DNA from: Candidatus Zambryskiibacteriota bacterium
GTDB lineage: Bacteria; Patescibacteriota; Minisyncoccia; Phycocordibacterales; WO2-35-19
DNA: 64,000 bases
Assembly: GCA_048499675.1 (NCBI GenBank)
Contig: JASNZL010000008.1
Coordinates: forward strand, 27 to 64,026
Reading direction: 5' to 3'
Positions 2,701 to 52,259 of the stretch are shown here, piece after piece. How positions within the stretch are numbered: position 1 is the first letter of the stretch; each line of letters opens with the position of its first letter. The notes beneath the pieces are model-generated. The model saw only the letters and a program-made list of their open reading frames with translations. It did not search any database and was not told the DNA's origin. Position numbers and translations under genes: made by a program.

Positions 2701-4614
2701 ATGTCCAAAAATAAAAAAGAAGAAAAGAAGAAAATAACTTTAAAAAAAAGTCCGAATGGTGGATTTAAAAACTCTTTTTTTGGTAACTTTTTGATAAGTG
2801 TTCTTATATTATTTTTCGTAATATCTATTTACTCTTTACTATCAGAAAATAAAACAAAAGAAAAGGTAAGCATCTCAGAAGTGGCTCAATCTGTAAGAGC
2901 GGGTGAAATCAAAGAGATAGCTGTAAGAACAAATAATATTGAAGTGACTTATCTGGACGACACAATCAAAACATCTGTCAAAGAAACCAGTTCGAGCATT
3001 GCAGAAACTCTATCTTTTTATGGAGTAACAGAGGAAGTATTGAATAAAGTAAAAATTGAAGTATCGGAAGGTGGGGGATTTTGGTACTGGGTTCTAAACC
3101 TTTCACCGTTTCTTTTCCCAATCCTCTTTATTGGAGTCTTTTTTTGGTTGATGACACGACAAGTCAAAGGTGCTGGTATGCAAGCATTTTCATTTGGGCA
3201 ATCTAGAGCTCGTATGACAGATCCTCTCGATCAAAAACAGAGAGTAACATTTAAAGATGTAGCGGGTTGCAAAGAAGCAAAAGAAGAGTTGTCAGAAATA
3301 GTAGACTTCCTAAAAAATCCTAAGAAATTTTTTGAAATCGGTGCAAGAATTCCAAAAGGCATTCTTCTTATGGGAGCACCGGGAACAGGAAAAACTCTAC
3401 TTGCAAGAGCTGTCGCGGGCGAGGCTGGTGTAGCATTTTTCTCAATATCAGGCTCTGAGTTTGTTGAAATGTTCGTTGGGGTTGGTGCAAGCAGAGTGCG
3501 CGACCTTTTCCAAATCGCAAAAAAAGCAGCACCTGCAATTATATTTATGGATGAAATAGATGCCGTGGGAAGAATAAGAGGTGGAGGTACTGGAGGAGGA
3601 AACGACGAAAGAGAACAGACTCTAAATCAGATTTTGGTTGAGATGGATGGTTTTGAACCAACAGAAAAAGTTATCGTGATGGCAGCCACAAATAGGCCCG
3701 ACGTTTTAGACCCAGCACTTCTACGACCTGGGCGATTTGATAGGAGAGTAACGATTGATCTTCCTGATCGAAATGACAGAGAAGAGATACTAAAAATCCA
3801 CTCTCGAAGCAAACCTTTTGCAGAGGATGTTGATTTAAAACTTATTGCTGAAAGAACACCGGGATTTTCCGGAGCTGATTTATACTCCTTAATGAACGAG
3901 GGTGCCATACTTGCTGCGAGAGAAAACAGAAATAAAATTTCTCAATTTGACTTAATCCGCTCAATAGAAAAAGTGATGCTGGGGCCCGAAAGAAGAAGTC
4001 ATATACTTTCCAAAAAAGAAAAGGAGATAACGGCTTACCACGAAGCAGGGCACGCGCTGGTTGCCTCTCTATTACCTAATGCAGACCCTGTACACAAAAT
4101 TTCTATAATATCTCGAGGTAGAGCTGCTGGCTATACTTTGAAGCTCCCAATAGAAGACCGAAAACTACAATCAAGAAATGAATTTCTTGATGATATAGCA
4201 ATGTCTTTGGGTGGTTATGTAACGGAAAAGATAGTTTTTGGCGATCTTACCACTGGACCATCAAACGACCTTCAAGTCTCGACAGCAATGGCCCGAGATA
4301 TGGTCACAAAATATGGAATGTCAGAAAATTTGGGACCAATTGCTCTTGAAGGTAGTGGTGGTAAAGCGCTTTTTGGCAGAGGAATAAACGACAAAGAATA
4401 TTCAGAAGAGGTTGGAGCCCTTATAGATAAAGAAGTTTCAAAAATAATGAATGATGCCCACAACAAAGCAGTAAAAATTATTACCGAGCACAAGAACCTA
4501 CTTGATATAATCGCCAAACGACTTATTGAAGTCGAGAACATAGAGCGCGATGAATTTGAACAAATACTAATATCAAACGGAGTGCAACCAAAAAAAGCTG
4601 AACAAGTATCTTAG
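2701..4614 (+). CDS. ftsH: ATP-dependent zinc metalloprotease FtsH
   Basis: 637 aa; N-terminal TM segments, Walker [12 protein letters not shown] region, zinc motif HEAGHAL. Confidence 0.95.
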
Positions 4615-11981: not shown

Positions 11982-12845
11982 ATGGAAGAAAATATGACAG
12001 CCAAAAAACTAGACCATGCAAGGCACGACTTAAAGCGAAGTTTGGGTCAAAATTTCTTGAAAGACCCAAAAATACTTAAAAAGATTGCCGATTTTGCCAA
12101 AATTGACAAAAAAGACACCATAATTGAAGTCGGTCCGGGAGAAGGGACACTCACAGAATTTTTGCTACAAAGAGCGGGCAAAGTTATAGTGATAGAAAAG
12201 GACGACAGAATGGTAGAATTCTTACACCACAAATTCCAACGCCAAATTTTACTGGGCAAGTTACAAATCATTTCTGGTGATGTTTTGAAAATTGAAAATT
12301 TATTAAAAATTGCAAAATTGAAAATTGAAAATTTTATTTTAATCGGTAACATCCCTTACTATATAACCGGAGCATTGTTTAGAAAAATTTTTGAATTAGA
12401 AAATTTACCAAAATCTTTAACTTTTGTAGTCCAAAAAGAAGTTGCGGACAGAATAATGACGAGGTCTGCACACCAAGGGGGAGGGGGGAGTAAAGAAAGT
12501 ATTTTGAGTATTTCGCTCAAAGTATATGGAACACCAAAATATGGAGGAGTAATCAAAGCTGGAAGTTTCTTCCCAAAACCAAAAGTTGATTCGGCAATTA
12601 TTTCAATTGAGAATATTAGTCGGAAAAATCTAAAAAGAGGAGATGAGGAAAGATTTTTTGAAATTTTAAAAGCTGGATTTGCTCACAAAAGAAAGCTGCT
12701 CATAAAAAACCTTGAAAAAATAAGCACGAAACCAAATTTAGAAAAAGTTTTTGACACATTAAAGATACCAAAAAACACAAGGGCTGAGGACTTGAAAGTA
12801 GAGAATTGGCTTCAAATAGCAAAAAAACTTACATATACGAAGTAA
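11982..12845 (+). CDS. rsmA: 16S rRNA (adenine1518/1519-N6) dimethyltransferase KsgA/RsmA, with a short in-frame low-complexity insertion (KIENLLKIAKLKIENF)
   Basis: LGQNFLKDPKIL, EVGPGEGTLT, IGNIPYYITGALF motifs. Confidence 0.9.
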   Translation: MEENMTAKKLDHARHDLKRSLGQNFLKDPKILKKIADFAKIDKKDTIIEVGPGEGTLTEFLLQRAGKVIVIEKDDRMVEFLHHKFQRQILLGKLQIISGDVLKIENLLKIAKLKIENFILIGNIPYYITGALFRKIFELENLPKSLTFVVQKEVADRIMTRSAHQGGGGSKESILSISLKVYGTPKYGGVIKAGSFFPKPKVDSAIISIENISRKNLKRGDEERFFEILKAGFAHKRKLLIKNLEKISTKPNLEKVFDTLKIPKNTRAEDLKVENWLQIAKKLTYTK

Positions 12846-13010
12846 CGAATTGGTTACGAATAGATACGAACAAGAAACGAGGTACGAAGTAGAATTAATC
12901 TAATTACACTAATTAACCTAATTATTCTAAATAATGACTAATTCTCAGTCCTAAATTTAAAATTGGGCATTGAGATTTATTTAGATTAATTAGAAATTAG
13001 AGTAATTACT

Positions 13011-13100
13011 TGTCCCGCGTAGTTTTAACGAAGTGGGACTTGTCCCGCGTAGTTTTAACGAAGTGGGACTTGTCCCGCGCAACTTCAGTGAAGTGGGAGA
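13011..13100. repeat. 3 x 30-bp perfect/near-perfect tandem repeats, each an internal hairpin (GTCCC...GGGAC), at the head of the secretion-like locus
   Basis: tgtcccgcgtagttttaacgaagtgggact repeated twice exactly, third copy tgtcccgcgcaacttcagtgaagtgggaga; no spacers. Confidence 0.8.
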
Positions 13101-13183
13101 ATAATTATTTTTGCCCACCTGTTCCCAAATCCTCTTTCACACTTTTTCTTTCTTTTAAGCTTAGTCTTGTTATAATTATTGTA

Positions 13184-14038
13184 ATGATGGCACCGAGTAA
13201 TAAAGCAATAAGCATAATTGTGATTACTTCAGCTTTTGTAATATTTGTTATTGTTGGTTTTGGTTTTGAAAAATCTTCTAACCTTGTTGGTAGTGCCGAC
13301 AATTTAATAGCTGGTGAAAAAATATTGCCCCCAACGAATCCAAATTGGCAAGAAGATTTAGATAAATTAAACATCCAGAGCAAAGATTTGAGCGGGGCAG
13401 AAACTATCCCAAATAGAGACACAGTGACCGAAGCTCTCTCTATCACACTCGCGTCAAATATTTTGACACATAAACAAAACAATACCCTCACCGAAAGAAC
13501 CGCCTTAGAACTAATAGACAAAAGCCTTGATTTTGTTGATAGTACAGCACCAAAAACAGATTCATTCAAAGTTACTGATTTAAATGTAGTCCCAAATAAC
13601 GGCCAAATCTCAATCAAACAATATGGCGAAAATCTAGGCCTAATCCTCAAAACAAGTAGGCCAGTAAATGCCAAAAATGAGATGCAAATAGTTGGAGATG
13701 CTATAGAAGCAAACAACCCATCAAGAATGAATGAGCTTGATCCTGTAATAATGAATTACCAAAACCTAACCGAAAAATTAGTAAAAATGCCTGTACCAGA
13801 GCTTTTTGTCAAAGCACACTTAGATATGGTTAATGGTTTAAACCAAATCCCATCTTCTTTAAAAGAAGTAAAAAAGGTTTTTGCTGATCCAATGACTGGT
13901 CTGATGTCACTTGAACTCTACAATGATGGCGTTAGTTTGTTTGCTTCAGCAATAAGCGCAACTGTTGAATTTATCAAGTCAAACAAAGTTATTTATGAAC
14001 AAGGCAGTGGTGGTTACTTCTTGTTGTACGGGATATAA
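13184..14038 (+). CDS. N-terminally membrane-anchored extracytoplasmic protein (first gene of the T4SS-like locus). The ATG start at 13184 is chosen; the ORF-track TTG start at 13010 would read through the tandem repeats.
   Basis: MMAPSNKAISIIVITSAFVIFVIVGFGF hydrophobic anchor followed by hydrophilic domain; no family recognised. Confidence 0.45.
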   Translation: MMAPSNKAISIIVITSAFVIFVIVGFGFEKSSNLVGSADNLIAGEKILPPTNPNWQEDLDKLNIQSKDLSGAETIPNRDTVTEALSITLASNILTHKQNNTLTERTALELIDKSLDFVDSTAPKTDSFKVTDLNVVPNNGQISIKQYGENLGLILKTSRPVNAKNEMQIVGDAIEANNPSRMNELDPVIMNYQNLTEKLVKMPVPELFVKAHLDMVNGLNQIPSSLKEVKKVFADPMTGLMSLELYNDGVSLFASAISATVEFIKSNKVIYEQGSGGYFLLYGI

Positions 14039-15362: not shown

Positions 15363-15375
15363 GAATATTCAATAA

Positions 15376-17733: not shown

Positions 17734-17743
17734 CCGAAACAAA

Positions 17744-18325
17744 ATGGATAATACAAAAGAATTATTGATACAAAAAATAGAATCTTTACCCAAAGCATAT
17801 AAAAGCTATATTTTGAGTAAGGAATGGGTTAAAAATTTATCTGAAACTTTTTTAGGTTTTACTTTTGATGAATGGCAAATAACTTCTATTGAAAATGAAG
17901 TATTTATTGTACTTGTTGGTTTAGAGCCATACACAAATCTATCAGAAAATATTTCAAAAGAAGCGGAAATTGACATAGAAACAGCAAACAAAATAGCGGT
18001 GGGTATAATAAATAAAATACTTGGACCAATAACAGAAAAATTTAGAAAAGATTTTGGTATCCCCGAAGAAACAAAACAGCCAGAAAAAACAAACCCGATA
18101 GGAAAATCATTTGAAGAAACAATATTAAACCAAGCGAGAGGGATGATGCCTGCCCGCCACGCTTCGCAAAGCGATGCGGGCGGGCCTGCCCGTCCTGCGA
18201 ACGAAGATACGAGTTACGAGATACGAGATGAGGCAAATAAAAAAATAGAGGAAAACAACAAACCAAATGTTCCATTACCTAATTATTCTGGAGGAAACGA
18301 TCCGTATAGAGAACCAATTCAATAA
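17744..18325 (+). CDS. acidic hypothetical protein carrying an in-frame GC-rich hairpin + heptamer-repeat insertion (MPARHASQSDAGGPARPANEDTSYEIRDE)
   Basis: ORF continuity through the insertion at 18149-18228. Confidence 0.5.
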   Translation: MDNTKELLIQKIESLPKAYKSYILSKEWVKNLSETFLGFTFDEWQITSIENEVFIVLVGLEPYTNLSENISKEAEIDIETANKIAVGIINKILGPITEKFRKDFGIPEETKQPEKTNPIGKSFEETILNQARGMMPARHASQSDAGGPARPANEDTSYEIRDEANKKIEENNKPNVPLPNYSGGNDPYREPIQ

Positions 18326-18454
18326 TTACCTAATTCCTAATTGCCCTAATTAATCTAAACAAATCCAAAGGCCTAATTTTAAAATTGGGAATTGTAGATT
18401 AGTCATTATTTAGAATAATTAGTATAATTAGATTAATTAGAATAATTTAACCCT

Positions 18455-18889
18455 ATGCGTTTTCAAATACCACAATTTATTGATGTAGAAGACCAAATAC
18501 TTGGCCCTTTTACTTTAAAACAGTTTATTTACATTGCAGGAGGCGCAAGCGTTGCTTTGATTTTTGTAACCCTACTTGGTGTTTTTTGGGGACTTTTAGT
18601 TTCTTCTCCAATTGTAATTCTCGCTCTAGCTCTGGCTTTTTACAAAATAAACAACAGACCGTTTATAAACACCCTCGAGTCAGCATTTAAATATATGATC
18701 AAAGACAAACTCTATATTTGGCACAAAAAAGAGCCTGAGGAAAAAGAAGCAGACTCTAGTACCGACAAAAAATTTAGCTCGCTTGTTGTGCCCAACTTAT
18801 CCCAAAGTAAACTCAAGGATATGAACTGGGAATTAGATGTGAAGAAGAAGGAAAACGAGTTACGAGATACGAGTAACGAGATACGATAA
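18455..18889 (+). CDS. small two-TM membrane protein, VirB3/PrgI-like candidate; C-terminus encoded by heptamer repeats (ENELRDTSNEIR)
   Basis: MRFQIPQFIDVEDQILGPFTLKQFIYIAGG followed by two hydrophobic helices; lies immediately upstream of the VirB4 gene, as VirB3 does. Confidence 0.5.
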   Translation: MRFQIPQFIDVEDQILGPFTLKQFIYIAGGASVALIFVTLLGVFWGLLVSSPIVILALALAFYKINNRPFINTLESAFKYMIKDKLYIWHKKEPEEKEADSSTDKKFSSLVVPNLSQSKLKDMNWELDVKKKENELRDTSNEIR

Positions 18890-19192
18890 AAAGATTTTGA
18901 AAATTTAAAATTTAATAAGAGTTAAAACTTAAAAGCGTTTTTGTTTATATAAAAAATTTTAACAGTTAACTCTTTTCATTCCTAGGGTTGTTTTAATCTT
19001 TAAATGATTAATTCAAAATAAAGAATGAATATAACTAATAACAAAGGATATAATACGGTGTATTTAAATTTTTTTATTTTATAAGTGGTGCAAATCAAAA
19101 AATAGGATTATAATCATTAATATAGATTTGGTTGTTTATTTTAAAAATTAATTCGTACTTCGTTACTCGTACCTCGTAACTCGTCCATTTTT

Positions 19193-19813: not shown

Positions 19814-19838
19814 AAATTTTAATTGTAAATAAAACAAA

Positions 19839-20258
19839 ATGAGTTACGAGTTACGAGTTACGAGTTACGAAACAAAAGAGAAAATAAACACTTTTCATGA
19901 TTTAAGAGTGTGGAAAGAAGCACATAATCTGGTTATATCAATTTATAAGACAACTAAAAATTTTCCAAAGGATGAGCTTTTTGGGTTAACTAACCAAATA
20001 AGGAGGTCTGCGGTCTCAATAACATCAAATTTAGCTGAAGGGTTTGGTAGAGAAACAATAAAGGATCGGGTACATTTTTATATTATATCCTTAGGATCAT
20101 TAAACGAAATCCAGAATCAGCTTCTCATTTCAAAAGATGTAGGATACCTAAGTTTAGAAAATTGGAGTAAGCTTGAAGAACAGATTATAATTGTAAACAA
20201 GATGCTTAATGGTTTAATAAAAAGATCCAGATCGTACTTCGTTACTCGTACCTCGTAA
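19839..20258 (+). CDS. four-helix-bundle protein of the 23S rRNA intervening-sequence protein family
   Basis: DLRVWKEAHNLVISIYKTTKNFPKDELFGLTNQIRRSAVSITSNLAEGFGR...SLGSLNEIQNQLLISKDVGYL matches the family consensus. Confidence 0.8.
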   Translation: MSYELRVTSYETKEKINTFHDLRVWKEAHNLVISIYKTTKNFPKDELFGLTNQIRRSAVSITSNLAEGFGRETIKDRVHFYIISLGSLNEIQNQLLISKDVGYLSLENWSKLEEQIIIVNKMLNGLIKRSRSYFVTRTS

Positions 20259-20265
20259 CTCGTTC
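19841..20265. mobile_element. inverted-repeat-flanked insertion splitting the VirB4 gene; carries a four-helix-bundle protein gene
   Basis: left arm GAGTTACGAGTTACGAGTTACGAGTTACGAA (19841-19873) and right arm TCGTACTTCGTTACTCGTACCTCGTAACTC (20231-20265) are near-perfect reverse complements; the arms encode the N- and C-termini of the cargo ORF. Confidence 0.55.
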
Positions 20266-20272
20266 TAAATAT

Positions 20273-22078: not shown

Positions 22079-22353
22079 AGAAGGGGTAGAAGCTCGTAAA
22101 ATTGAAAAAATTATTCTAATTTCTAATTAACCTAATTATCCTAAAAAAATCCTAAATTCTAAATTCTAAATTTGGAAGTTTTAAATTTTGGATTTTGAAT
22201 TTCTGATTTGCTTGCCCTGTAAAAGCTTGCTTTTATTCGAGTTTAGTATTTCGGATTTAGAATTTAGAATTTTATCGTATCTCGTACTTCGTAACTCGTA
22301 CTTCGTTTGCCTTCATATCGTGTTTTATTTTAAACTCTTGATATAATATCCTT

Positions 22354-23361
22354 ATGGATGAAGCTATAGAACAAAATGCTGGCATACAAAGAGAACCTCT
22401 AATAAGGCCTGTTCGTAAGTATCCAAGAGAAAAAGAAGTAAAACATAGAATTAAAATATGGATGGCTTACTGCCTTATTGTTTTTGCTGTAATGATAGAC
22501 TTCGCTGAGTTGGGCACTACTTATATTGGAGTTGTGGTTATTGGTGGGATTTTAAGCAATCTAATTGCAGCTTTTGCCACAACCGTTTTTTGGATTTGGT
22601 TTTTGATACTAGGAGTCCCTTATTCTGCTAATACCAAAAGGTTTGGTGTAATGGTGGTGACTCACGTTGCAGAGTATGTCCCCGTGGCTGATGCTTTGCC
22701 GTTTTGGTTTATGTGGACAATAGGTATGGCGGTTACTATAGGAATGGTGAGGATGGAGGATAAGGGAGAAAAACCAACAATTCTTGGTGGGATATTAGAA
22801 ATATTATCGATAACAGCACCATCTCCAGGTATTTCCATTTTAAAAAAAATTACCAGCTCTCAATTGGTTCTTAATAAAATACATAATGTAAAGTACGCTA
22901 AACAAATTAATAGTATGGATAGATTAGGGAGTGTAGAATCTGGCACAAAAGGTAATTCCAAAACATTAGATTTAAGAAATAAAAATACTCACTCTGGTTA
23001 TTCTCTAAAAAAACGGCCCCCTACGAACCAATCTGCTCAATCGCAACAAAAATTGAATAGATTACAATCTGACATTAGTAGATATCAAGCAGAGATACAA
23101 CAAAAAGAAAGAGAGTTGGCACAAAAAGAACAACACTACAAGGAAAATGAGGACGGTTTTACTCGTGGCCTCGAAATAATTCGTTCAACCAGAGATATTA
23201 ACAAAGAAGAAGAAGCCAGATACTTTAGGGAACATAGTTCAAGAATGACCTCTTTCTACCAAGACATAGACAAACTAAAATCCAGCATAGCAGGACTTAA
23301 AAAACTAATCTCTCAATTACAAAATGAAATATCGATATCCCAATCAAAAACTGTAACTTAA
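22354..23361 (+). CDS. membrane protein (3-4 TM) with long C-terminal coiled coil; unknown function, in T4SS-like locus
   Basis: hydrophobic helices in residues ~45-140, heptad-rich tail. Confidence 0.45.
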   Translation: MDEAIEQNAGIQREPLIRPVRKYPREKEVKHRIKIWMAYCLIVFAVMIDFAELGTTYIGVVVIGGILSNLIAAFATTVFWIWFLILGVPYSANTKRFGVMVVTHVAEYVPVADALPFWFMWTIGMAVTIGMVRMEDKGEKPTILGGILEILSITAPSPGISILKKITSSQLVLNKIHNVKYAKQINSMDRLGSVESGTKGNSKTLDLRNKNTHSGYSLKKRPPTNQSAQSQQKLNRLQSDISRYQAEIQQKERELAQKEQHYKENEDGFTRGLEIIRSTRDINKEEEARYFREHSSRMTSFYQDIDKLKSSIAGLKKLISQLQNEISISQSKTVT

Positions 23362-23509
23362 GACAAATGAAATCTCCTCAAACCAAACCTCAAGCAACAA
23401 ATACAAGCAATGTATTAAATCTAAAAAAGGTTGCCTAAATTGTTTTCTTATCTAATTTCGTTTCCACAAAACCAAAACAAAAAAATAACTACCGTAGTAT
23501 AATTAAACT

Positions 23510-24493
23510 ATGATAAAAAATATCGGAATTATAATAACTTTTTTACTCTTGGTACCTGTCTTTACCTTTGCTCAACAAATAAATATTCCTTTTGCACTGT
23601 CAAACGAGCTTAATGTTGATGTAAACCCAGATTATCCAAGACCAAACGAGAATACAACCATTTCACTATCACTTTATTCTGATGATTTGACTACAGCAAC
23701 CATCTCTTGGTATCAAGACGACGAACTAGTTTTGAGTGGTATAGGCAAGACTATTCACCAATTCACAATGGGCAATGTGGGCGAGGAAACAAAAATACGA
23801 ATAGTGATTAATTTGCTTAACGGAATTAGTTTTTCAAAACAACTAAGCTTTACGCCAGCAAGCGTTGATCTTGTTTGGGAAGCAGAAAGCTATGTACACC
23901 CATTTTACAAAGGCAAGGCGCTACACCCAAGACAAGGATCTATAAAGGTGGTAGCAGTGCCCGAGTTTTATAGAAATGGAAACAAAGTTCCGGCTGAAAA
24001 TTTGGTCTACACATGGACCAATGGTTTAAAGGCAGTCCAAAACCAATCAGGATACGGCAGGAATGTTGTTTTTTTGGACGGTTCTCTTTTTGGTAGAACC
24101 GAGAGAATAGAAGTGATAGTGGTCGACCCTATAAACAATCTGGTTGCTAGTCAAGTAATTAACATAGCACCAACTGCACCGGAGATACTTTTTTACGAAA
24201 ATAATCCCTATTATGGTTACTTATTTGATGTTGCGATTCCAAATCAATTCAAACTTGTTTCAGATGAGGTAGAGATAGTTGCTTCACCTTATTTCTTTAC
24301 AAAGGAAGACGTGCCTTTTTTCAATTACAACTGGCGCATCAACAACAGTTCCGTTCCTTCTATAGCTGACTCAATGAGTGCAATTTTTAGAAGACCAGAA
24401 GAGAGTGGACGTTCACAAGTTTCTTTGGAAATTGCAAATCAAAGCCGATTATTACAACAAGCACAAAAAAGTTTTTCAATAAATTTTGATTAA
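23510..24493 (+). CDS. secreted protein with signal peptide; unknown function
   Basis: MIKNIGIIITFLLLVPVFTFAQQ signal peptide. Confidence 0.5.
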   Translation: MIKNIGIIITFLLLVPVFTFAQQINIPFALSNELNVDVNPDYPRPNENTTISLSLYSDDLTTATISWYQDDELVLSGIGKTIHQFTMGNVGEETKIRIVINLLNGISFSKQLSFTPASVDLVWEAESYVHPFYKGKALHPRQGSIKVVAVPEFYRNGNKVPAENLVYTWTNGLKAVQNQSGYGRNVVFLDGSLFGRTERIEVIVVDPINNLVASQVINIAPTAPEILFYENNPYYGYLFDVAIPNQFKLVSDEVEIVASPYFFTKEDVPFFNYNWRINNSSVPSIADSMSAIFRRPEESGRSQVSLEIANQSRLLQQAQKSFSINFD

Positions 24494-24496
24494 AAT

Positions 24497-25501
24497 ATGA
24501 AAAAAACATTTATTAATACAACCTTTATCATTTTTGCATTTGCACTTCTTTTGTTCTCTCCTTTTTATATAGAGGTTGCACTTGCACAACCAACACCAAC
24601 CCCAACATCTGCCACAACAGCTGAGGATCCTTATACCCTCCTAGCACCAATTCCTTGCGTTGGCGGTAATTGCTCTGGTGATTTGGCAACAAACACAACC
24701 TTACCTCAATACGTAAAAGGCTTTATCCAATTATCAATTGGTATTTCCGCTGTTTTTGCAATAGTTATGATAGTTATCGGCGGGTTCCAATATATGACTT
24801 CAGACGCTCTGCAAGGCAAACAAGATGGTAAAACCAGAATTAAAAACTCAGCAATAGGAATATTACTTATAGCAGCTTCTTTTATAATTTTACAAACAAT
24901 AAATCCAGACTTGCTTGACATAAAACTAAAAATTGATGCGAGTCCGACCGCGCAGAGTGGTACCCAGACAGGAACACTTGTTGCCGGCGGGACTTGCACA
25001 ACCTGTGTACCACTTGATAGTTCTTTATCTTCGGTTCTTAAGCGCGGCCAAGGAACACAAATACTACCAGATACCAACACAAAGCTTGTCGCATTAAACA
25101 ACACTCTGAAAGAAGAAAATATTTCATGGTGGATTTCTGAAGCGTACCCACCAACAGTAAAGCATGCAAATGTTTGTCATTCTGCTGGCACCTGCATTGA
25201 CGCAAATTTCACAAATACTAGTAAGCCTAGGACAAGTGATTTTGAATCTCTAACTGAACCAGAAAGGACTCAGCATGCAAAGAATATAAATAGCTTTATC
25301 GACTCGGCGGAAAGTGCAAACTTAAGAGCAATATATGAGGTACCAACTAGCGCCAGGAGAGATCTTTTAATACAAGCAGGGGTTCCAGCAAATAGAATAA
25401 TTACTGTTATAAAATCAGACGGCGCACCTATAGAGCCACACTTTTCGGTATATAATTGTTCTGCCCACCCAGAAAGCTGTAGAACCTTGCCAAGACCATA
25501 A
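24497..25501 (+). CDS. signal peptide + two closely spaced TM helices (VirB2/TrbC-pilin-like core) followed by a Cys-rich extracellular domain
   Basis: after signal: QYVKGFIQLSIGISAVFAIVMIVIGGFQYM - short polar loop (SDALQGKQDGKTRIKNS) - AIGILLIAASFIILQTI; topology resembles T4SS pilins; the C-terminal 180 aa contain 9 Cys. Confidence 0.4.
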   Translation: MKKTFINTTFIIFAFALLLFSPFYIEVALAQPTPTPTSATTAEDPYTLLAPIPCVGGNCSGDLATNTTLPQYVKGFIQLSIGISAVFAIVMIVIGGFQYMTSDALQGKQDGKTRIKNSAIGILLIAASFIILQTINPDLLDIKLKIDASPTAQSGTQTGTLVAGGTCTTCVPLDSSLSSVLKRGQGTQILPDTNTKLVALNNTLKEENISWWISEAYPPTVKHANVCHSAGTCIDANFTNTSKPRTSDFESLTEPERTQHAKNINSFIDSAESANLRAIYEVPTSARRDLLIQAGVPANRIITVIKSDGAPIEPHFSVYNCSAHPESCRTLPRP

Positions 25502-25506
25502 TAAAC

Positions 25507-26766
25507 ATGAAAAAAATATTACTTATAGTTGGAATAATATTGATAATCGGAATAGTAATATTCTTTATGTTTGGTATGGGAGGATCACAACAAGAAGGGG
25601 AGAGTAGGATTGGTTTTTCTTTACAAGAATTTTTTCCTTTTGGTAGAAGCGGGGATAGTAGCACGACCGCCACCGAAAATACATTCCCAATAAATGAAAA
25701 CGAAAGTTTTGGTGGCTCTGAAACGGACGAAAACAAACCGATACCAAGACTAAGAAAACTTTCTGGGGAACCTGTAGCTGGGTCAATAATGTTTAATGTG
25801 GGGACAACAAGCGTTGTAAGGTTTATAGAAAAAGGCACAGGTAATGTATATGAGGCAAGATCGGATTCAAACAAAATAGAGCGACTAACAAACACAACCA
25901 TTCCAAAAATTATAAGGGCTTTTTGGTTGCCAAATGGCACAGGTTTTTTGGCACAAACTCTAATTCCAAACACAGAAATAATAGAGACAAGTTTTGTTAA
26001 ATTAAACCAAAGAAACGGCGAGGATTCATTAGGTGAAGTCTTGACCCCTTATGTAACATCTATCGCCAAACTACCCACAGGGATAAAAGAAATATCTATC
26101 AGACCAGATGGTGCCAAGATTTTTTATTACATACAAAATAGGAATTATACAAATTGGTATATATCAAATCCTGACGGAACAGGGAGTGAGATGGTTTATG
26201 CTCACAACCTAGCCGAGTGGTTACCTAAATGGATATCTACAAACACTATTATTATGCAGACCAAGAGTAGTTATATTGCTCCATCTTACACATACACATT
26301 TAGTCCACAAACAAAAATATTAAAAAAACAAGGTTTTGGTTATAACGGGCTTTCACTTTTACCAAAACAAGATAATTTGTTTAGTTTAATATCAATCGGT
26401 GGCATCAACACAGATTTGTATTTACTTAACAACAATACCTTTGAAACAAGTGCCTTGGTATCAAGTGCTATAGCAGAAAAATGTGTCTGGTCAAAAACGG
26501 AGGATATGTTTATTTACTGCGCTGTTCCAAACTCACTACCAAACAGCACCTATCCTGATTCTTGGTACAAAGGAATTATAAGGACTGAGGATTCAATTAG
26601 AAAGATAGATTTAAATAACAACATTTTTTACAATGTTATTGATCTAAAGAGGGAATCGGAAGAAGAAATAGATGTTGTTGATGTTTTAATTTCTTCAGAC
26701 GACACCCATCTCATATTCAGGAATAAAACCGATGGATTTTTGTGGATACTTCGAGTAGAAGACTAG
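25507..26766 (+). CDS. N-terminally anchored extracytoplasmic protein, possibly beta-propeller-like; unknown
   Basis: MKKILLIVGIILIIGIVIFFMFG anchor; repetitive beta-rich segments. Confidence 0.45.
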   Translation: MKKILLIVGIILIIGIVIFFMFGMGGSQQEGESRIGFSLQEFFPFGRSGDSSTTATENTFPINENESFGGSETDENKPIPRLRKLSGEPVAGSIMFNVGTTSVVRFIEKGTGNVYEARSDSNKIERLTNTTIPKIIRAFWLPNGTGFLAQTLIPNTEIIETSFVKLNQRNGEDSLGEVLTPYVTSIAKLPTGIKEISIRPDGAKIFYYIQNRNYTNWYISNPDGTGSEMVYAHNLAEWLPKWISTNTIIMQTKSSYIAPSYTYTFSPQTKILKKQGFGYNGLSLLPKQDNLFSLISIGGINTDLYLLNNNTFETSALVSSAIAEKCVWSKTEDMFIYCAVPNSLPNSTYPDSWYKGIIRTEDSIRKIDLNNNIFYNVIDLKRESEEEIDVVDVLISSDDTHLIFRNKTDGFLWILRVED

Positions 26767-26795
26767 GAGCGCCATCTAACAATTATTTGCCTGTT

Positions 26796-27188
26796 CTATA
26801 GCAAAACTAGATTATAGACTAAACTTACTACTAGCAAGACAATTAGTATAATTTTGAATGAGTTTTTTTGTAAAATAGTTTTTTCTTTTTGTTCTCTGTT
26901 TTCTCTTATTTCCAACCCAAACAGTTTTCTATAATAGTGAACCATGCAAGATTTTTCATATTTTGAATCAGGAAAAATCTTTCTTCTTAGATCAAATTCT
27001 ATATTTGTGAGCACACATCTGCCGAAAAGAATTTCCGAAATAAATGTAAAGGTCCACAACACCAAAAAATAAACGAAGAGTTTGGGGAAGAGCCAACTAA
27101 AAACCACAGACAAGACCAGCAAGAAGTGTATTACAAATATAATATCTGCAACAAAGGTATACAAGAATATTTTATTTTTTGTGAGCAT
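26796..27188 (-). CDS. small integral membrane protein, unknown function (start placed at internal ATG to avoid overlap with yidC)
   Basis: four hydrophobic segments. Confidence 0.45.
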   Translation of the reverse strand: MLTKNKIFLYTFVADIIFVIHFLLVLSVVFSWLFPKLFVYFLVLWTFTFISEILFGRCVLTNIEFDLRRKIFPDSKYEKSCMVHYYRKLFGLEIRENREQKEKTILQKNSFKIILIVLLVVSLVYNLVLL

Positions 27189-35652: not shown

Positions 35653-36168
35653 TTAGTTAAGAGTCAACCTAATAGCCGAACAAGTAAGAGCTGTTGCTAT
35701 CGCATCATACTCATCATCCAATCTTTTTTTTGGTTCTAATTTTAGTATTTTGTGTATCATTTGAATAATCTGTTTTTTGTCGCTTTTGCCATAACCAGTA
35801 ACAGCAAGCTTTATCTCGTTTGGGTTAAACTCTCTAATCAACAAGTTTCTTCTCGCACCTTCATTTATTATTACTCCACGAGCCTCTGATACTTGCAAGG
35901 CTGTTTTTTGGTTCTTACTAAACAAAAGAGTTTCAATAGCCATTTCCTGAGGTTTAAATTTTTCGATGATATCTTGAATTTTTAAAGAAAGAGAAAGAAG
36001 TCTTTTGCTGTGAGGGAGTTTTGGGTCTGTCTCAAAACATTCAGAATAAATTAATTTATCAGTAGTGTTATTCTTTTCTATTATTGCTATACCGATTCTT
36101 CCATACCCAGGGTCAATACCCAAAATACGGCTTCTAGGCAATAACTGAGAGCTTAGAGTTTTTTTCAT
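35653..36168 (-). CDS. ruvC: Holliday junction resolvase RuvC
   Basis: RILGIDPGYGRIGIAIIE...; catalytic Asp-containing motifs. Confidence 0.9.
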   Translation of the reverse strand: MKKTLSSQLLPRSRILGIDPGYGRIGIAIIEKNNTTDKLIYSECFETDPKLPHSKRLLSLSLKIQDIIEKFKPQEMAIETLLFSKNQKTALQVSEARGVIINEGARRNLLIREFNPNEIKLAVTGYGKSDKKQIIQMIHKILKLEPKKRLDDEYDAIATALTCSAIRLTLN

Positions 36169-36197
36169 TTTTTTATTTTACTTAAAGCTTCAAGCTT

Positions 36198-39817: not shown

Positions 39818-40261
39818 ATAAATATTATAGCACGCTGTTTGGGATAGAATAAGTTAAAACAACACGAATTAGGGAAACGAGGTACGAGATACGAAGTACA
39901 ATAAAATATTAAATTCTAAATACTAAATCCGAAATATTAAACAAAACTTTAAATTCTAAATTCAAATGTTCAAAACAAAAATTTTATTTTACAATTTAAA
40001 ATTTATAATTCCAGTAACTTGAAAATTAAATTAGTAAGATTGGTCCGCCCGCAACGCCTTAAGTGAAGCAATTGCGGGCAGCAGGTTTCCAAGGACTGTC
40101 CTTGGAAGTGAAAAAACAAATTTTCCAAGGGCTACCCTTGGAAGTGTTTTTAGGATTGTTTTTCAATGTATTTGGTTGGTGTATTGGAACAAAAAAGGCC
40201 TGAAGCCATTGACAAAAGGTTTCAAATTTGCTATAATTAGGGTAGAGAAGGAGAAAGTACA

Positions 40262-40918
40262 ATGAAAAAAGGGTTATTTCTGTCTGTTTTTTTGGCGCTT
40301 GTCCTCTTGGGCGGATGCCGGAAGACCCTCATTGTTCATGTCCCGGTTAGCCCGGGTATGAGCAAGACGGAGGTTGTGAAGGCCGAAAAAGAGGCGACCC
40401 GCCAGGCGGTCGCCGAGAAAAAGATGGAGGAACATGCCTCCAAAGCGGTGAGACAAATTGTCCGCCGTGCCACTCAACAAAACGAGTGGAAGCAAGAGTT
40501 CGCCCTCTCATGTCCCTACGGGGGCTACGAGAGGGTAATCATCCACCCCCACCTAGGAGACCAGTTCACTTATTGGAGGGGTGGGGGAGCCCAAAAAATC
40601 CTCATGCGCAGGGTGGTTATGGTGCATAGGGCGATGAACCCTTACACCAATCTCCCCTGCACCCTCCTCGAGGGTGGCCAGTTGGCGGTGAGCAATATGT
40701 GTCCGGGGGGGAGCATAACACTTGTCTCCTCCATTCCTCCCGTCGTTGGTGGCAGGGCACGGCAGGTAATCTGGACCGCCGAGGCCATGATTGAGGGCAG
40801 GCTCGCTCATAGCGAGTCGTCGCCAGGGATGATCTGGCAGGGGGACATGTGGTGGGAGGTTCAAATGAACCGCCCATCATGGATAATCGAATTCACTCGG
40901 GTGGATAAGGAATTCTGA
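40262..40918 (+). CDS. lipoprotein (lipobox LLGGC) encoded by a high-GC islet; unknown function
   Basis: MKKGLFLSVFLALVLLGGC; GC content visibly much higher than neighbours. Confidence 0.6.
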   Translation: MKKGLFLSVFLALVLLGGCRKTLIVHVPVSPGMSKTEVVKAEKEATRQAVAEKKMEEHASKAVRQIVRRATQQNEWKQEFALSCPYGGYERVIIHPHLGDQFTYWRGGGAQKILMRRVVMVHRAMNPYTNLPCTLLEGGQLAVSNMCPGGSITLVSSIPPVVGGRARQVIWTAEAMIEGRLAHSESSPGMIWQGDMWWEVQMNRPSWIIEFTRVDKEF

Positions 40919-40940
40919 TTCCACGATTCCACCCAAAATC

Positions 40941-40980
40941 AAGGGCGGGGAGCGCAAGCTTCCCGCCCTTTCTACTTTTT
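40941..40980 (+). terminator. rho-independent terminator after the lipoprotein gene
   Basis: AAGGGCGGGgagcgcaagcttCCCGCCCTTtctacTTTTT. Confidence 0.8.
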
Positions 40981-41129: not shown

Positions 41130-41627
41130 ATGCAATATACATCTAAATCAGTCGAAGAGACAGAAGAAATAGCAAAGGATTTTATAAACGATTTTATTTT
41201 ACAGGAGAAAAATAGAGACAAAGCTTTTGTGGTGGGTCTCTATGGCGACTTGGGGGCAGGCAAAACAACTTTTATGAAATGTTTCGCAAAAAATTTGGGT
41301 GTAAAAGAAACTATTCAAAGCCCAACATTTGTCATAATGAAGAAATACGAGTTACGAAGTACGAGTAACGAAGAACGAGAAAAAAAGGAATCTGATTTAT
41401 CGTACCTCGTACCTCGTACTTCGTATGCCTGTTTATATCACATTGATGCTTATAGAATAGAAAAAGACGAGGAAATGTTAAAATTAGGATGGGATGAAAT
41501 AATACACAACCCGAATAATTTAGTTTTTGTAGAATGGCCGGAAATTATAAAAGATATAATGCCACCACATACTAAAATATTTTTTGAACATATAAAAGAA
41601 AACGAGAGGGAAATAAAAATAATTTAA
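41130..41627 (+). CDS. tsaE: tRNA threonylcarbamoyladenosine biosynthesis ATPase TsaE, carrying an in-frame ~80-bp palindromic insertion
   Basis: P-loop GLYGDLGAGKTTF, SPTFVIMKKY, YHIDAYRI. The segment ELRSTSNEEREKKESDLSYLVPRTSYACL is encoded by inverted TACGAG-type arms (41346-41426). Confidence 0.8.
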   Translation: MQYTSKSVEETEEIAKDFINDFILQEKNRDKAFVVGLYGDLGAGKTTFMKCFAKNLGVKETIQSPTFVIMKKYELRSTSNEEREKKESDLSYLVPRTSYACLYHIDAYRIEKDEEMLKLGWDEIIHNPNNLVFVEWPEIIKDIMPPHTKIFFEHIKENEREIKII

Positions 41628-44023
41628 TGAAAGAGAATAAATCAAATAAAAAATTAGTTTTACTTGATGCGCACGCGATTATTCATCGCGCGTACCACGC
41701 CCTGCCAGATTTTGCTACAAGCAAAGGAGAACCAACTGGGGCGTTATATGGTCTTGTGGCAATGATTTTAAAAATAGTTACCGACCTAAAACCAGATTAC
41801 ATAGTTGCTTGTTACGATTTACCAAAACCAACTTACAGACACGAAGTTTATGATGGATATAAATTAGGCAGAGCAAAGACAGATGAAAATTTGGTGATGC
41901 AACTAGAAAAATCAAAACAGATTTGTGAAATTTTAAACATACCAATTTATTCCAAAGAGGGTTTTGAGGCTGATGATATGCTTGGAACAATAGTAGAGAA
42001 ATTGAAAATTCCTGTGGATATAATTATTGCATCTGGTGACATGGATACAATGCAACTTGTAAAAGATGGAACAGGAAAAACTGGAAGTGTTAAGGTCTAT
42101 ACTCTAAAAAAAGGCATAAACGACACCATTCTGTATGATGAGAGTAAGGTAATAGAAAGATTTGGTTTTCACCCAAAATATTTAGCAGATTTCAAAGGGT
42201 TAAGGGGCGACCCGTCGGATAACATCATTGGTATTGTTGGAATTGGAGAAAAGAGTGCAACAGAACTTATAAAGAATTTTGGAACAATTGAAGAAATATA
42301 TAAACAAATCCGAAATCCAAAATCCGAAATCCGAAACAAAATAAAAGAAAGGGTTATAAAATTGTTAGAAGATGGAGAAGAGGAGGCAAAATTTAGCAAA
42401 ATGCTCGCAACAATTAGAAGAGACGCTCCGATAGATTTTGTTTTGCCAGAAACCGAATGGAAAAACGGCGTTGATTTGAATAAGGCAAAAGCGCTTTTTG
42501 CGGAATTGGAATTTAGAAATATGGGCAGTAGGCTTGAAAGTGTTTTGGGTAACGCTTCGGACGAAAGTCGCAAGGACACACAAAAACAAAACGATGATAG
42601 AGATTTGCTTGAGAAATCGCGAAGTGTCGAGGTGGAAGAGGCAAAGGTGGCGCTCTGGGTTCTTGATTCAAACAAAACGGATCCAAGTTTGGAAGATGTT
42701 TTATTTGCAGGTAAATCAGAAAACTTTGATACGGCAAAGAAAAATATCATGGATGAAATAAAAAACAGAGAAAGTGAATTTGTTTTTGAGGAAATAGAGA
42801 AACCGCTAATTCCTATAATAAAGAAAATAGGGGAACACGGAGTTTTGATAGACAAAATTTTCCTAAAAGATTTGGGAAAAAAATATTCAAAAGAGTTAGA
42901 AAAAATAGAGAAGGAAGTCTGGCAAGAAGCAGGCACTGAATTTAATGTTGCTTCACCAAAACAACTAGGAGAGATTCTTTTTGATAAACTCAATCTTTCT
43001 GTTAAAAATCAAAAAAAGACAGCCGGAGGAGCAAAATCGACAAAAGAATCAGAACTAGAAAAAATGAAGGATATGCACCCGATAATTCCACTTGTTTTGG
43101 AATACAGAGAACTTCGCAAACTCTTATCTACCTATATAGACCCAATTCCAAAGATGCTTGATAAAGACGATAGATTGCATGCAAGATTTATACAAGCTGG
43201 CACCACAACGGGCAGAATGTCCTCGGAGAACCCAAATTTACAAAACATACCGATTGGTAGTGATAGAGGGAAAGTAATAAGAAATGCTTTTATCTCACCC
43301 AAAAAAAGAAAACTGGTTGCGATGGACTATTCTCAAATAGAGCTCCGTATATCCGCCTTTCTTTCAAAAGATAAAAAACTAATTGATATTTTTAGAAATG
43401 GTAAAGATGTGCACTCTGCAGTCGCTTCTGAGGTCTTTAGGGTAAATGAATATGAAGTAACAAAAGAGATGAGAAGGCAGGCCAAAGTAATAAATTTTGG
43501 GATTTTATATGGAATGGGAGTTACTGCTCTGCAAGCAAATTTGGGAACAGATAGGAAAACAGCTCAAGAATTTTTGAACGCATATTTTGAGAAATTTGAT
43601 GGTTTAGCAAACTATCTTCATAGGTCAAAACAAGAAGCGAGTGAGCTGGGATACACAAAAACTTTTTTTGGAAGAAGGAGGTATTTTGAGGGTATAAAAT
43701 CAAAAATCCCATTTATCAGAGCAAGTGCCGAAAGGATGGCCATCAACGCTCCTATCCAAGGAACGTCAGCCGATATAATAAAAATTGCAATGAAAAAAAT
43801 TGATGATTATTTGACTCAAAATGAGAGTTCAAAAAAGGCAAATTTGATTATGCAAATTCACGACGAATTAATATATGAGGTAGACGAATCTTTTGTTTCT
43901 GACTTTTCCAAGAATGCCAAAAATATAATGGAAAATACAATAGACAAAAAAGATATATCAGATGTGCCGATAGTTGTGAATGTTTCAGTGGGTGATAATT
44001 GGGGGGAGATGGAAGGATTATAA
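41627..44023 (+). CDS. polA: DNA polymerase I (5'-3' exonuclease + polymerase domains)
   Basis: N-terminal FEN-like LVLLDAHAIIHRAYHAL; polymerase motifs DYSQIELR (A), KVINFGILYGM (B), HDEL (C). Confidence 0.9.
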   Translation: MKENKSNKKLVLLDAHAIIHRAYHALPDFATSKGEPTGALYGLVAMILKIVTDLKPDYIVACYDLPKPTYRHEVYDGYKLGRAKTDENLVMQLEKSKQICEILNIPIYSKEGFEADDMLGTIVEKLKIPVDIIIASGDMDTMQLVKDGTGKTGSVKVYTLKKGINDTILYDESKVIERFGFHPKYLADFKGLRGDPSDNIIGIVGIGEKSATELIKNFGTIEEIYKQIRNPKSEIRNKIKERVIKLLEDGEEEAKFSKMLATIRRDAPIDFVLPETEWKNGVDLNKAKALFAELEFRNMGSRLESVLGNASDESRKDTQKQNDDRDLLEKSRSVEVEEAKVALWVLDSNKTDPSLEDVLFAGKSENFDTAKKNIMDEIKNRESEFVFEEIEKPLIPIIKKIGEHGVLIDKIFLKDLGKKYSKELEKIEKEVWQEAGTEFNVASPKQLGEILFDKLNLSVKNQKKTAGGAKSTKESELEKMKDMHPIIPLVLEYRELRKLLSTYIDPIPKMLDKDDRLHARFIQAGTTTGRMSSENPNLQNIPIGSDRGKVIRNAFISPKKRKLVAMDYSQIELRISAFLSKDKKLIDIFRNGKDVHSAVASEVFRVNEYEVTKEMRRQAKVINFGILYGMGVTALQANLGTDRKTAQEFLNAYFEKFDGLANYLHRSKQEASELGYTKTFFGRRRYFEGIKSKIPFIRASAERMAINAPIQGTSADIIKIAMKKIDDYLTQNESSKKANLIMQIHDELIYEVDESFVSDFSKNAKNIMENTIDKKDISDVPIVVNVSVGDNWGEMEGL

Positions 44024-44238
44024 TTACCTAATTTCTAATTATTCTAATTAATCTAAACAATTACTAATATGGTAAAAAATACAAAATACAGTAAACAAAT
44101 TACATATAAAATACAGGAAGTAGAATAAAACCTAAAACATTTAATTTTGTATTTTATAATTTGTGATTTGTTTATAATTTTAACTTTTGATATTTTTTAG
44201 AAATTATAATAATTAGAGTACTTAGAAAAATTATACTT

Positions 44239-46962: not shown

Positions 46963-47062
46963 ATGATTTAAATTATTCTAATTAACCTAATTTCTAATTA
47001 ATCTAATAGGTACTTGTAAATTGGGATTTTTTTAGAATAATTAGAGTAATTATACACAATAA

Positions 47063-47590
47063 ATGAAAGTTTCAAAAGGAAAAAAGGATGTTGTTGTAAT
47101 TCTGAACAACATAAGGAGTAATGAGAATGTTGGCTCTATATTTAGGACGGCAGACGCTTTTTGTGTTTCAAAAATATATCTATGTGGTTATACACCTGCT
47201 CCGCTGGATAGGTTTGGAAGAGAGAACAAAGGTCTAACTAAAGCATCGCTTGGCGCGGAGAAGATGGTTGTTTGGGAAAAGGTTGAAGATATGAAGGAGT
47301 TGATTAAACAATTAAAAATTGAAGGATATAAAATTGTCGGGATAGAACAAGATACCAATTCGTTAAATATAGAATCTTTTAATTCTAAAATCGTAACTCA
47401 TTACTCGTTACTCGGTTTAATATTTGGCAACGAAGTAGATGGTCTTAATGAAGAGGAACTAAAACTCTGCGACTATATAGTAGAAATACCAATGAGAGGA
47501 AAATTAAAAAGAGATAGGGGAGCAAGTAAAATAAACAAAGAATCCCTAAATGTTGCCGTAACAGCAGGGATAGTATTGTCTAGTATATAA
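47063..47590 (+). CDS. SpoU/TrmH-family RNA 2'-O-methyltransferase, with a short in-frame heptamer-repeat insertion (IVTHYSLL)
   Basis: NVGSIFRTADAFCV, LIFGNEVDGL motifs; insertion at 47390-47415. Confidence 0.75.
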   Translation: MKVSKGKKDVVVILNNIRSNENVGSIFRTADAFCVSKIYLCGYTPAPLDRFGRENKGLTKASLGAEKMVVWEKVEDMKELIKQLKIEGYKIVGIEQDTNSLNIESFNSKIVTHYSLLGLIFGNEVDGLNEEELKLCDYIVEIPMRGKLKRDRGASKINKESLNVAVTAGIVLSSI

Positions 47591-51337: not shown

Positions 51338-51539
51338 ATTTAAATTTAAAATGTAAATATAAAAATTAAAAATGACAATTTAAAATGGAAAATATTTAAA
51401 CCCTAAATTATACTTTTTTGCTATTTTATATTCTTGCCTGTGACTTTTCATTTTGACTTTTAAATTTATAATTTAATCGTACCTCGTACCTCGCCTTCTC
51501 AATTAGTGTCATTCGTTTTCATTTGTAATTTGTGTCGTG

Positions 51540-52106
51540 TTATTGACCTAAATTTTTTAAAATATATTTTATTTTTTCGTTTGTACCTTCCAAATCTTTT
51601 GGTAATTGTTTGATTGTTTCTTGAATATCTCTTTCACGATAACCTAATGATTTAAGAGCTTCAAATACATCCACATCTTCGCTAGTCCTGCTTTCACCTT
51701 TTCTGGTTGTAATTAGTTTTCCATTCAGTTCCAAAACAATTTTCTCCGCTGTTTTTCTGCCAATACCTGAAATTTTGGTAAGTGATGAGGTGTCGCCAGT
51801 ACCAACCGCCTCTTCAATTGATTTTACTCCTGCAACAGAAAGTATGGCTAAACCAGATTTCGGCCCAACTCCAGAAACAGTAATCAAAAGCTCAAAAATC
51901 CTTAGTTCCTCTTCAGTTTCAAAACCATATAAATCAATTGAATTTTCTCTGACCGCCGTGTGGGTCCAAAAGTTTGCTTCCTCTCCTGTTCTTAATTTTG
52001 CCAAATAAGAAGGTGTGCTATATATAATAAAACCAATATTGCCAGCCTTTACAATAGCTTTTGCACCCTTTAAATCAAAAATTTTACCTGTTATGTGTCC
52101 AAACAT
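51540..52106 (-). CDS. ruvA: Holliday junction DNA helicase RuvA
   Basis: MFGHITGKI..., HhH motifs LLITVSGVGPKSGLAIL, C-terminal domain. Confidence 0.9.
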   Translation of the reverse strand: MFGHITGKIFDLKGAKAIVKAGNIGFIIYSTPSYLAKLRTGEEANFWTHTAVRENSIDLYGFETEEELRIFELLITVSGVGPKSGLAILSVAGVKSIEEAVGTGDTSSLTKISGIGRKTAEKIVLELNGKLITTRKGESRTSEDVDVFEALKSLGYRERDIQETIKQLPKDLEGTNEKIKYILKNLGQ

Positions 52107-52259
52107 AAAAGCTTAGAGCTAAAAGCTTAGAGCTTGAAGCTGTATATAATATAGCAAAACTGAGGTTATTTTCATCTTATTGCTATTTTTTTATATTTAT
52201 GTTAGATTTTACACGTCATTAATTTTAAATTTTGATTTTTTAATTTTGATTTTTATAAC

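Follow-up and report, generated by a model that had tools for sequence, protein, structure and literature searches.

The tsaE gene and its in-frame hairpin

The DNA analyzed in the present study is a stretch of 64 kb, hereafter referred to as the window. The ORF at 41130..41627 on its plus strand encodes a TsaE protein of 165 aa, which matched Pfam PF02367 (E 2e-30, 105.7 bits, cutoff 26.6) and also exceeded the curated cutoff of NCBIfam TIGR00150 (93 bits, cutoff 60.1). The ORF is intact, and the alignment shows no variation in its Walker A, SPTF, and HxDxYR motifs; the match to PF02367 is broken into two stretches by an insert. In the translation, SPTFVIMKKY is followed by the insert peptide ELRSTSNEEREKKESDLSYLVPRTSYACL and then by YHIDAYRI.

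At the DNA level, the insert is an imperfect hairpin at 41346-41425 that is read in frame and has tandem heptamer arrays, (TACGARN)5 and (TCGTACY)3-4, as its arms. On the plus strand, the left arm (41346..41380) consists of the five units TACGAGT TACGAAG TACGAGT AACGAAG AACGAGA, the first of which overlaps the native Y-E-L codons TAC GAG TTA. It is followed by an A-rich loop of 19 nt, AAAAAAGGAATCTGATTTA (41381..41399), and by the right arm TCGTACC TCGTACC TCGTACT TCGTA (41400..41425), which is the inverted complement of the left array. The loop is common to the window and its orthologue in a relative, L081, and is unlike the loops of the other copies described below. The arms were paired by an inverted-repeat search over 36 nt at 75% complementarity or over 30 nt at 83%, and TRF reported a period of 7/14 at 41342-41379 and 41400-41425. 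The segment folded at -19.5 kcal/mol as DNA (z -5.0, equaled by 0/200 shuffles) and at -32.4 kcal/mol as RNA (z -5.0), while the fold of the linker alone had a z of -6.3.

The Logan assembly of run SRR21762701, which possibly derives from the same reads as the MAG, is 100% identical to the window over 616 nt including the insert, and a JGI metagenome contig with a TsaE that is 80% identical carries the orthologous insert. Since the insert is found in both, it is real and not an assembler artefact; a misassembly is unlikely, and the presence of the hairpin in the reading frame of tsaE is confirmed. An earlier description made from the sequence alone, referred to here as the preliminary description, had claimed an in-frame palindromic element with an A-rich loop between the conserved motifs of TsaE and had proposed a comparison with a second assembly; sequence, coordinates, and loop are all as it described them, and the comparison bears it out with the above proviso on shared reads.

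Position of the insert in the protein

The linker between SPTF and HxDxYR is 32 aa in the TsaE of the window and 13 aa in the shortest of 120 homologues, a difference of 19 aa, and query residues ~75-100 stand in for a turn of 3-4 residues in solved TsaEs (5NP9/5MVR, 9ZW5, 6N9A, and 1HTW). The figure of ~27 added residues in the preliminary description was thus too high, the addition being 19 aa relative to relatives with 13-aa linkers and about 23-26 aa relative to the solved TsaEs. In an AlphaFold2 model of TsaE (pLDDT 86.6; core >90), the insert, with a pLDDT of 50-73, joins strands 70-74 and 101-106. Because of this strand placement and low pLDDT, the insert is predicted to be a disordered extension at the tip of a beta-hairpin, with the SPTF strand on one side and the Walker-B (HxDxYR) strand on the other. 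Considering the P-loop topology, this tip would be distal to the ATP site.

Heptamer arrays across the window

The unit of the tsaE insert is not confined to this gene. The 13-mer TACGAAGTACGAG was matched, with at most 2 mismatches, at 19 positions of the 64-kb window versus 0.67 expected, and TACGARN arrays occur at approximately nine sites besides tsaE, with clusters of ACGAR/YTCGT at 12837, 18201, 18855, 19152, 19846, 20238, 22281, 39864, 47396, and 51477. Tracts of period 7 numbered 13 versus 0.05 expected, with one tract each for periods 6 and 8, and period 7/14 dominated the TRF output. The left arm of the tsaE insert is 94% identical over 32 nt to the reverse complement of 19153-19184 and of 20232-20263.

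The usual layout of the copies, all given here for the plus strand, runs from a gene end through a plus-strand array, a spacer, and an inverted array to the start of the next gene. A TACGAG-family array at 18855..18886 provides the C-terminal codons of a PrgI-like ORF and is the left arm of a hairpin with an AT-rich spacer of 270 nt, the right arm of which, an inverted array at 19149..19185, lies directly upstream of a TraC-like ORF. A (GAGTTAC)4 array at 19841..19872 and a TCGTACN/TCGTAAC array at 20232..20264, the latter being one of the above 94% matches to the tsaE insert, form the arms of a hairpin that carries a gene. Solo arrays are found in frame in the ORF 17744..18325 (18205..18229, adjoining an in-frame GC-rich hairpin at 18151-18185), upstream of ORF 22354 (22275..22307, inverted), in the intergenic region upstream of pilB (39864..39896, missing from L081), and in another intergenic region (51477..51493, inverted, TCGTACC x2.4). 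An array of the inverted family at 47391..47414 lies in frame in a SpoU/TrmH-like ORF (47063..47590) and is longer in L081, and a degenerate ACGAA/ACGAG array at 12837..12889 overlaps the 3' end of ksgA.

The copies differ in the number of units, and their loops, which have 19 nt or 270 nt or contain an IVP gene, are unrelated. Since they share the arms alone, i.e., tandem heptamer arrays, there is no conserved full-length element among them, and comparisons of filled with empty sites revealed neither a target-site duplication nor fixed termini. Near the elements in the 64-kb window, we saw neither a transposase nor a reverse transcriptase. With these hallmarks absent, we infer the mobility of the heptamer hairpins from their distribution.

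At several orthologous sites, one close relative has an array that another lacks. At the yebC-ruvC junction (window 36100-36170), the window and L082 have a hairpin of the AAGCTTN type with the ruvC start codon inside its loop; the junction of L081 (2271-2297) has a hairpin of similar length and of the TACGAAG type, and the N-terminus of RuvC is longer by 12 aa. The change of unit at the tsaE and ruvC sites was not gradual, since all seven positions differ at a flank divergence of 10-20%. In polA, an in-frame (AAATCCG)x4.4 array at 42306-42336 corresponds in L081 and L084 to a stretch of equal length with an identity of ~55% versus ~90% for the flanks. The stretch of L084 is homogenized to AAAAGCT/TAGAGCT, a unit that is intergenic in the window at 52106-52141. 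To judge from these sequences, polA and a tsaE gene described below (P0057) look like cases of array turnover in situ, not of insertion.

IVP genes and their inverted arrays

The gene inside the 19841-19872/20232-20264 pair (19839..20258, plus strand) encodes a protein of 139 aa that belongs to the family of the 23S-rRNA-IVS (IVP) or four-helix-bundle proteins (PF05635, E 2e-38; TIGR02436, E 4e-36; domain at aa 21-125). The arms supply the codons of its N- and C-terminal tails, as is often the case in other IVPs. We know of no catalytic activity of IVP proteins.

In a set of 80 metagenomic loci with relatives of this IVP (43-63% identity), an inverted repeat with a score of at least 14 brackets the IVP gene in 50 of 78 loci versus 3 of 350 random placements. 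When IVP genes were compared with other ORFs of the same loci, such a repeat was found for 45/71 and 10/119, respectively (odds ratio 19, p = 7e-16). The arms of IVP genes are nearly always 7-nt periodic, and the unit varies by genome. Nearly all homologues of IVP on plasmids belong to cyanobacteria (Nostoc 12, Calothrix 4, Trichormus 2, and others) or to Riemerella, and inverted heptamer arrays bracket the gene in N. punctiforme, Nostoc ATCC 53789, T. variabilis, Geminocystis, Anabaena sp. 90, and Riemerella; in Pseudanabaena, the arrays on either side of the IVP gene, (AAAAGCT)12 and (AAAAGCC)10, are long and direct and not inverted. The bracketing of IVP genes by inverted heptamer arrays is thus a strong and general association that extends over CPR, cyanobacteria, and Bacteroidota, and a limited literature search returned no paper that had connected PF05635 with heptamer arrays.

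Cognate arrays outside the IVP element itself were present at 7 of 35 loci versus 6.7%, a modest enrichment against an imperfect control in which some units were related. The IVP gene was present in only 1 of 80 tsaE loci, and hence there was no power to correlate IVP with the density of period-7 tracts. In two cyanobacterial CRISPR-cas loci, on plasmids of Pseudanabaena and Anabaena sp. 90 (L175 and L180), an IVP gene lies between cas6 and cas4.

Orthologous junctions of a T4SS-like cluster

A T4SS/conjugation-like cluster at ~13000-26800 comprises genes for a PrgI-like protein, a TraC/TrsD-like protein of 206 aa, and a VirB4 ATPase of the CD1110 type. The cluster is also found in L166-L169 and L171, and in relatives it includes a T4SS pilin, adjoins rnpA-yidC-dnaA-dnaN, and shows 80-100% identity across Paceibacteria.

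Two junctions of this cluster were compared among relatives. Between the TraC-like and VirB4 genes, L168 is empty, the stop codon overlapping the start codon, whereas the window and L166 have TACGAGT arms with the IVP of 139 aa and L167 has GAATCYA arms with an IVP of 125 aa. The PrgI/TraC-like junction is also empty in L168, and it has TACGAG arms with the 270-nt spacer in the window, period-9 arms with a 117-aa IVP in L166, and cargo-free GAAGCTA/GAATCCA arms in L167. Empty, hairpin-only, hairpin-plus-IVP, and different-unit states are accordingly all found at orthologous junctions, with the type of IVP going together with the type of arm. A splitting of a VirB4 gene by the IVP cassette was considered and rejected because the 206-aa TraC/TrsD-like gene is separate in 120/120 homologues; the native arrangement of L168, in which the genes abut, also contradicts it.

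Palindromes at the tsaE site of other genomes

The closest relatives of the window were obtained by exact-protein look-ups, and those among the matches listed are MAGs of Paceibacteria, Zambryskibacteria, or Patescibacteria. Approximately three quarters of the 120 closest TsaE homologues have linkers extended beyond the baseline of 13 aa, and the extensions fall into the unrelated families A-F (ELRSTSNE..LVPRTSY; LKGASKKAQ..; IQNPESR..; TSPPNPLSLTRRGG..GGEV; IVVSSQQS..; AGKPENEKFS..). When 72 tsaE loci of diverse genomes were folded, all linkers of at least 30 aa formed a significant hairpin (z -2.2 to -8.4), whereas those of 13 aa gave no fold signal; the relatives that lack a repeat signature have a linker of 13 aa. 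Eight loci that had been missed by the motif search proved to be intact short-linker genes and not disrupted ones. The relatives with a segment of similar length each carry a hairpin or repeat signature of their own, and the comparison that the preliminary description had named as its refutation thus does not refute it.

In a tree of linker-masked TsaE sequences, the types of insert are scattered and mixed with short forms; within the clade P0001-P0005, the members of which are 71-80% identical, the types are A, A, B, B, and C. The flanks of these relatives are ~85-90% identical at the DNA level and their inserts are unrelated. The arms of types A and C are 7-nt periodic, and those of type B have a period of 14 nt (7+7). 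The hairpin of type B is near-perfect (-31.8 kcal/mol), and type D consists of GC-rich nested hairpins (-57.7 kcal/mol). A nested insertion into the loop was apparent from a comparison of P0014 with P0029, and L081 has an additional mini-hairpin. In unexpanded relatives, Y-E-L is encoded by TAC GAG TTA (native codons TACGAGTTA), which is one heptamer unit, and in P0057 a direct TACGAGT array makes up the linker of 13 aa and adds no length.

The unit of the tsaE insert was set against that of the IVP arms of the same genome. It is TACGAGN at both places in the window and L081/L166, CCAGAAT/GAATCYA in L082/L167 (from one sample, with similar coverage), and GCCAGNN in L053, in which the two agree at 94% over 33 nt, the IVP gene lies ~1 kb downstream of tsaE, and TsaE is only 33% identical to that of the window. 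On the sequences compared, agreement between the tsaE insert and the IVP arms of that genome is shown in three independent lineages. Types B and D had no match to IVP arms and almost no further copies in 34-40 kb of their genomes; therefore, the link to IVP arms is not universal, and the tsaE site takes several kinds of palindrome. Taken together, the sequence comparisons indicate that the tsaE position is a hot spot with a rapid turnover that is reused by several unrelated palindromes, so that the event in the window was not unique.

A gene for a PemK-family toxin lies between tsaE and polA in close relatives (L082, 10489-10884; L084, 683-1075). The window does not have this gene, and the tsaE stop codon overlaps the start codon of polA.

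Origin of the tsaE insert

We consider the tsaE insert a likely cargo-less copy of a hairpin cassette that resembles STRRs and is associated with IVP genes, the copy acting at the DNA level and being translated through. In its fuller form, this cassette would have an IVP (PF05635) gene in the loop and inverted tandem heptamer arrays as arms. The hairpin may have entered tsaE through DNA-level copying (insertion, template switching, or conversion) that was seeded by microhomology with the native TAC GAG TTA codons. The identity of these codons with one unit suggests template switching or conversion seeded in this manner rather than cut-and-paste transposition. The insert, translated through as a disordered extension of ~19 aa, may have persisted because the site is permissive and away from the ATP site. 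The association of IVP genes with their arrays also suggests that the IVP protein may act in trans on its cognate arrays, in a partnership like that of RAYT with REPINs. The preliminary description had favored a mobile palindromic insertion over ordinary divergence, and this is supported by the dispersed repeat family and by presence/absence or replacement at orthologous sites, from which the mobile part of the claim is derived.

A local origin would dispense with any transfer between loci. The array would have grown in place from the Y-E-L codons by 7-nt replication slippage, followed by an intrastrand templated "palindrome correction", and the other arrays would reflect a genome-wide slippage bias. 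The agreement of the native TAC GAG TTA with one heptamer unit, the direct array of P0057 that adds no length, the turnover of units in polA at constant length, and the variation in unit number among copies that have neither element termini nor a target-site duplication would all be expected from such a process. It does not readily account for the recurrence of unit variants at ~10 sites and the 94% match that both arms of the IVP hairpin show over 32 nt, nor for close genomes that have wholly different units at one site, with all seven positions changed, and a unit that follows the IVP arms of the genome in three lineages. We regard a local origin as unlikely on these grounds.

A role for the hairpin as a selected RNA structure in the tsaE-polA mRNA, either as an RNase III processing site, a stabilizer, or an attenuator, as has been proposed for STRR hairpins and the stems of 23S IVSs, appears very improbable. 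The sense strand had the better fold in only 3 of 13 tsaE inserts and the antisense strand in 10 of 13, and the lack of a G.U bias on the sense strand favors a palindrome at the DNA level. Moreover, many close relatives are hairpin-free and have 13-aa linkers only, the tsaE hairpin was not terminator-like in a terminator scan and matched no Rfam family, and cutting within an essential ORF would be costly. The Rfam gathering scan of the window returned only tmRNA and three tRNAs, with nothing at the insert or at 40000-40950. What speaks for an RNA structure is that a hairpin is kept at the tsaE site in many lineages despite sequence changes, that arms of the TACGAG family also lie between co-transcribed genes, and that roles in transcript stability or translational coupling have been proposed in the STRR literature (PMC2670836). 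An ordinary lineage-specific extension of the loop with coincidental palindromy, or an assembly artefact, might be entertained because the TsaE loop is variable in general and the sequences come from metagenome assemblies; however, both are effectively refuted by the fold statistics (z = -5, 0/200 shuffles), the excess of the motif (19 versus 0.67), the identical Logan assembly, albeit perhaps of the same reads, and the orthologous insert in L081.

Relation to known repeats and significance

The STRR (short tandemly repeated repetitive) sequences of cyanobacteria are "usually made up of 7 bp repeats" and their function is unknown (PMC2670836). Heptamer repeats have been described in Beggiatoaceae (TAACTGA), cyanobacteria, and Bacteroidetes (PMC4679880), and a study on such repeats called for a binding partner that has yet to be identified (10.1101/2022.06.06.494920). 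The present arrays resemble STRRs in their exact 7-nt tandem units at many dispersed loci, often as inverted arrays or hairpins between genes, and in a unit that changes between strains while the structure is kept. They differ in that the host is a Paceibacteria-like member of the CPR and not a cyanobacterium, that the tsaE copy lies within an essential ORF and is read in frame, and that they are linked to IVP genes, which was not described in the STRR papers searched.

Rickettsia palindromic elements (RPEs) are palindromic repeats that lie in frame at structurally permissive positions of unrelated housekeeping genes and extend their proteins (PMC10969869, citing Ogata et al. 2000). The tsaE palindrome is likewise in frame in a housekeeping ORF; however, RPEs are ~100-150 bp in length with a conserved consensus and peptide, whereas the tsaE family shares the arms alone and has a genome-specific unit. 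In REP/REPIN-RAYT systems, many short cargo-less palindromes coexist with one or a few copies that flank a protein gene, and the types of repeat and protein co-vary per genome (PMC3116915, PMC3337134). The match of the tsaE-insert repeats to the flanks of the IVP gene of the genome in three lineages, although not in types B and D, is similar to this, whereas the flanked gene encodes a PF05635 four-helix bundle of 120-140 aa instead of a Y1 transposase and the arms are tandem arrays instead of a unique palindrome. Unlike MITEs, the copies of the tsaE family have no defined termini and no target-site duplication.

In the intervening sequences (IVSs) of 23S rRNA, which encode S23p/IVP, an IVP ORF lies in the loop of a long stem of inverted flanks, and the IVS is excised by RNase III. 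The stem of inverted flanks at 19839-20264 similarly encloses an IVP ORF within a host transcription unit, but the host is protein-coding or intergenic and not rRNA, the tsaE copy is ORF-free, and excision by RNase III would destroy the tsaE mRNA. The Avd protein of DGRs works with a reverse transcriptase in the templated replacement of a target that adjoins a hairpin. The IVP of the window matched Avd profiles below cutoff (PF22296, E 7e-5; NF033474, E 2e-5), and a distant homology between the two may serve as a lead; no reverse transcriptase, template repeat, or variable repeat of a DGR was seen in the 64-kb window.

In-frame palindromes in housekeeping genes, for which Rickettsia is the classical case, are herein extended to the CPR and to another kind of repeat, and a limited literature search found no reports of such in-frame inserts in CPR proteins. 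The surface loop of an essential ATPase has been overwritten repeatedly by genome-specific repeats, which is relevant to the annotation, phylogenetics, and protein evolution of reduced genomes. By way of the tsaE insert, STRR-type repeats and the PF05635 family, each a long-standing unknown, were found to be generally associated, which makes IVP a concrete and testable candidate for the partner of heptamer repeats. This association, a by-product of the tsaE case, may matter more than tsaE itself. As a tentative possibility that we do not at present favor, IVP proteins may be the cognate trans-acting partners that bind, maintain, or mobilize tandem-heptamer hairpin cassettes, and the two may jointly constitute a widespread and unrecognized class of elements in Cyanobacteria, Bacteroidota, and CPR that would explain STRRs, account for the IVSs of 23S rRNA, and include cargo-less copies invading and rewriting permissive loops of essential proteins such as TsaE.

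Other repeats and features of the window

A second family of hairpins, which are intergenic and have 9-nt-periodic arms (AATTAATCT/CCTAATTAA facing TTAGAATAA), was found at 12893-13008, 18323-18447, 22109-22144, 44033-44233, and 46971-47052. In L166 and L171, arms of this 9-nt family bracket the different, 117-aa subfamily of IVP. In the ORF 17744..18325, the segment at 18151-18229 consists of the GC-rich in-frame hairpin, which encodes the peptide RHASQSDAGGPAR, and the TACGAG array that follows it; the GC-rich hairpin is present in the window, L166, and L167 and missing from L168 and L171. Similar hairpins, CCTGCCCGCC...GGCGGGCAGG, are present at 40044-40085 and, in L082, upstream of pilB.

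An ORF at 40262-40918 for a lipoprotein-like protein (MKKGLFLSVFLALVLLGGC...) has a GC content of 57-59% in a genome of 37% GC and had no Pfam or Rfam match. It is preceded by twin CCAAGG-N-CCTTGG hairpins (40040-40160) and followed by a strong terminator-like hairpin (40941-40970), and relatives have a gene of ~200 aa at its position. A 9/18-nt tandem array, (AACTTTATG)x5.7, at 2631-2691 lies directly upstream of the ORF 2701..4614, and a perfect 30-nt tandem repeat, ACTTGTCCCGCGTAGTTTTAACGAAGTGGG, is present in 2.4 copies at 13008-13079, at the 5' end of the ORF 13010..14038.
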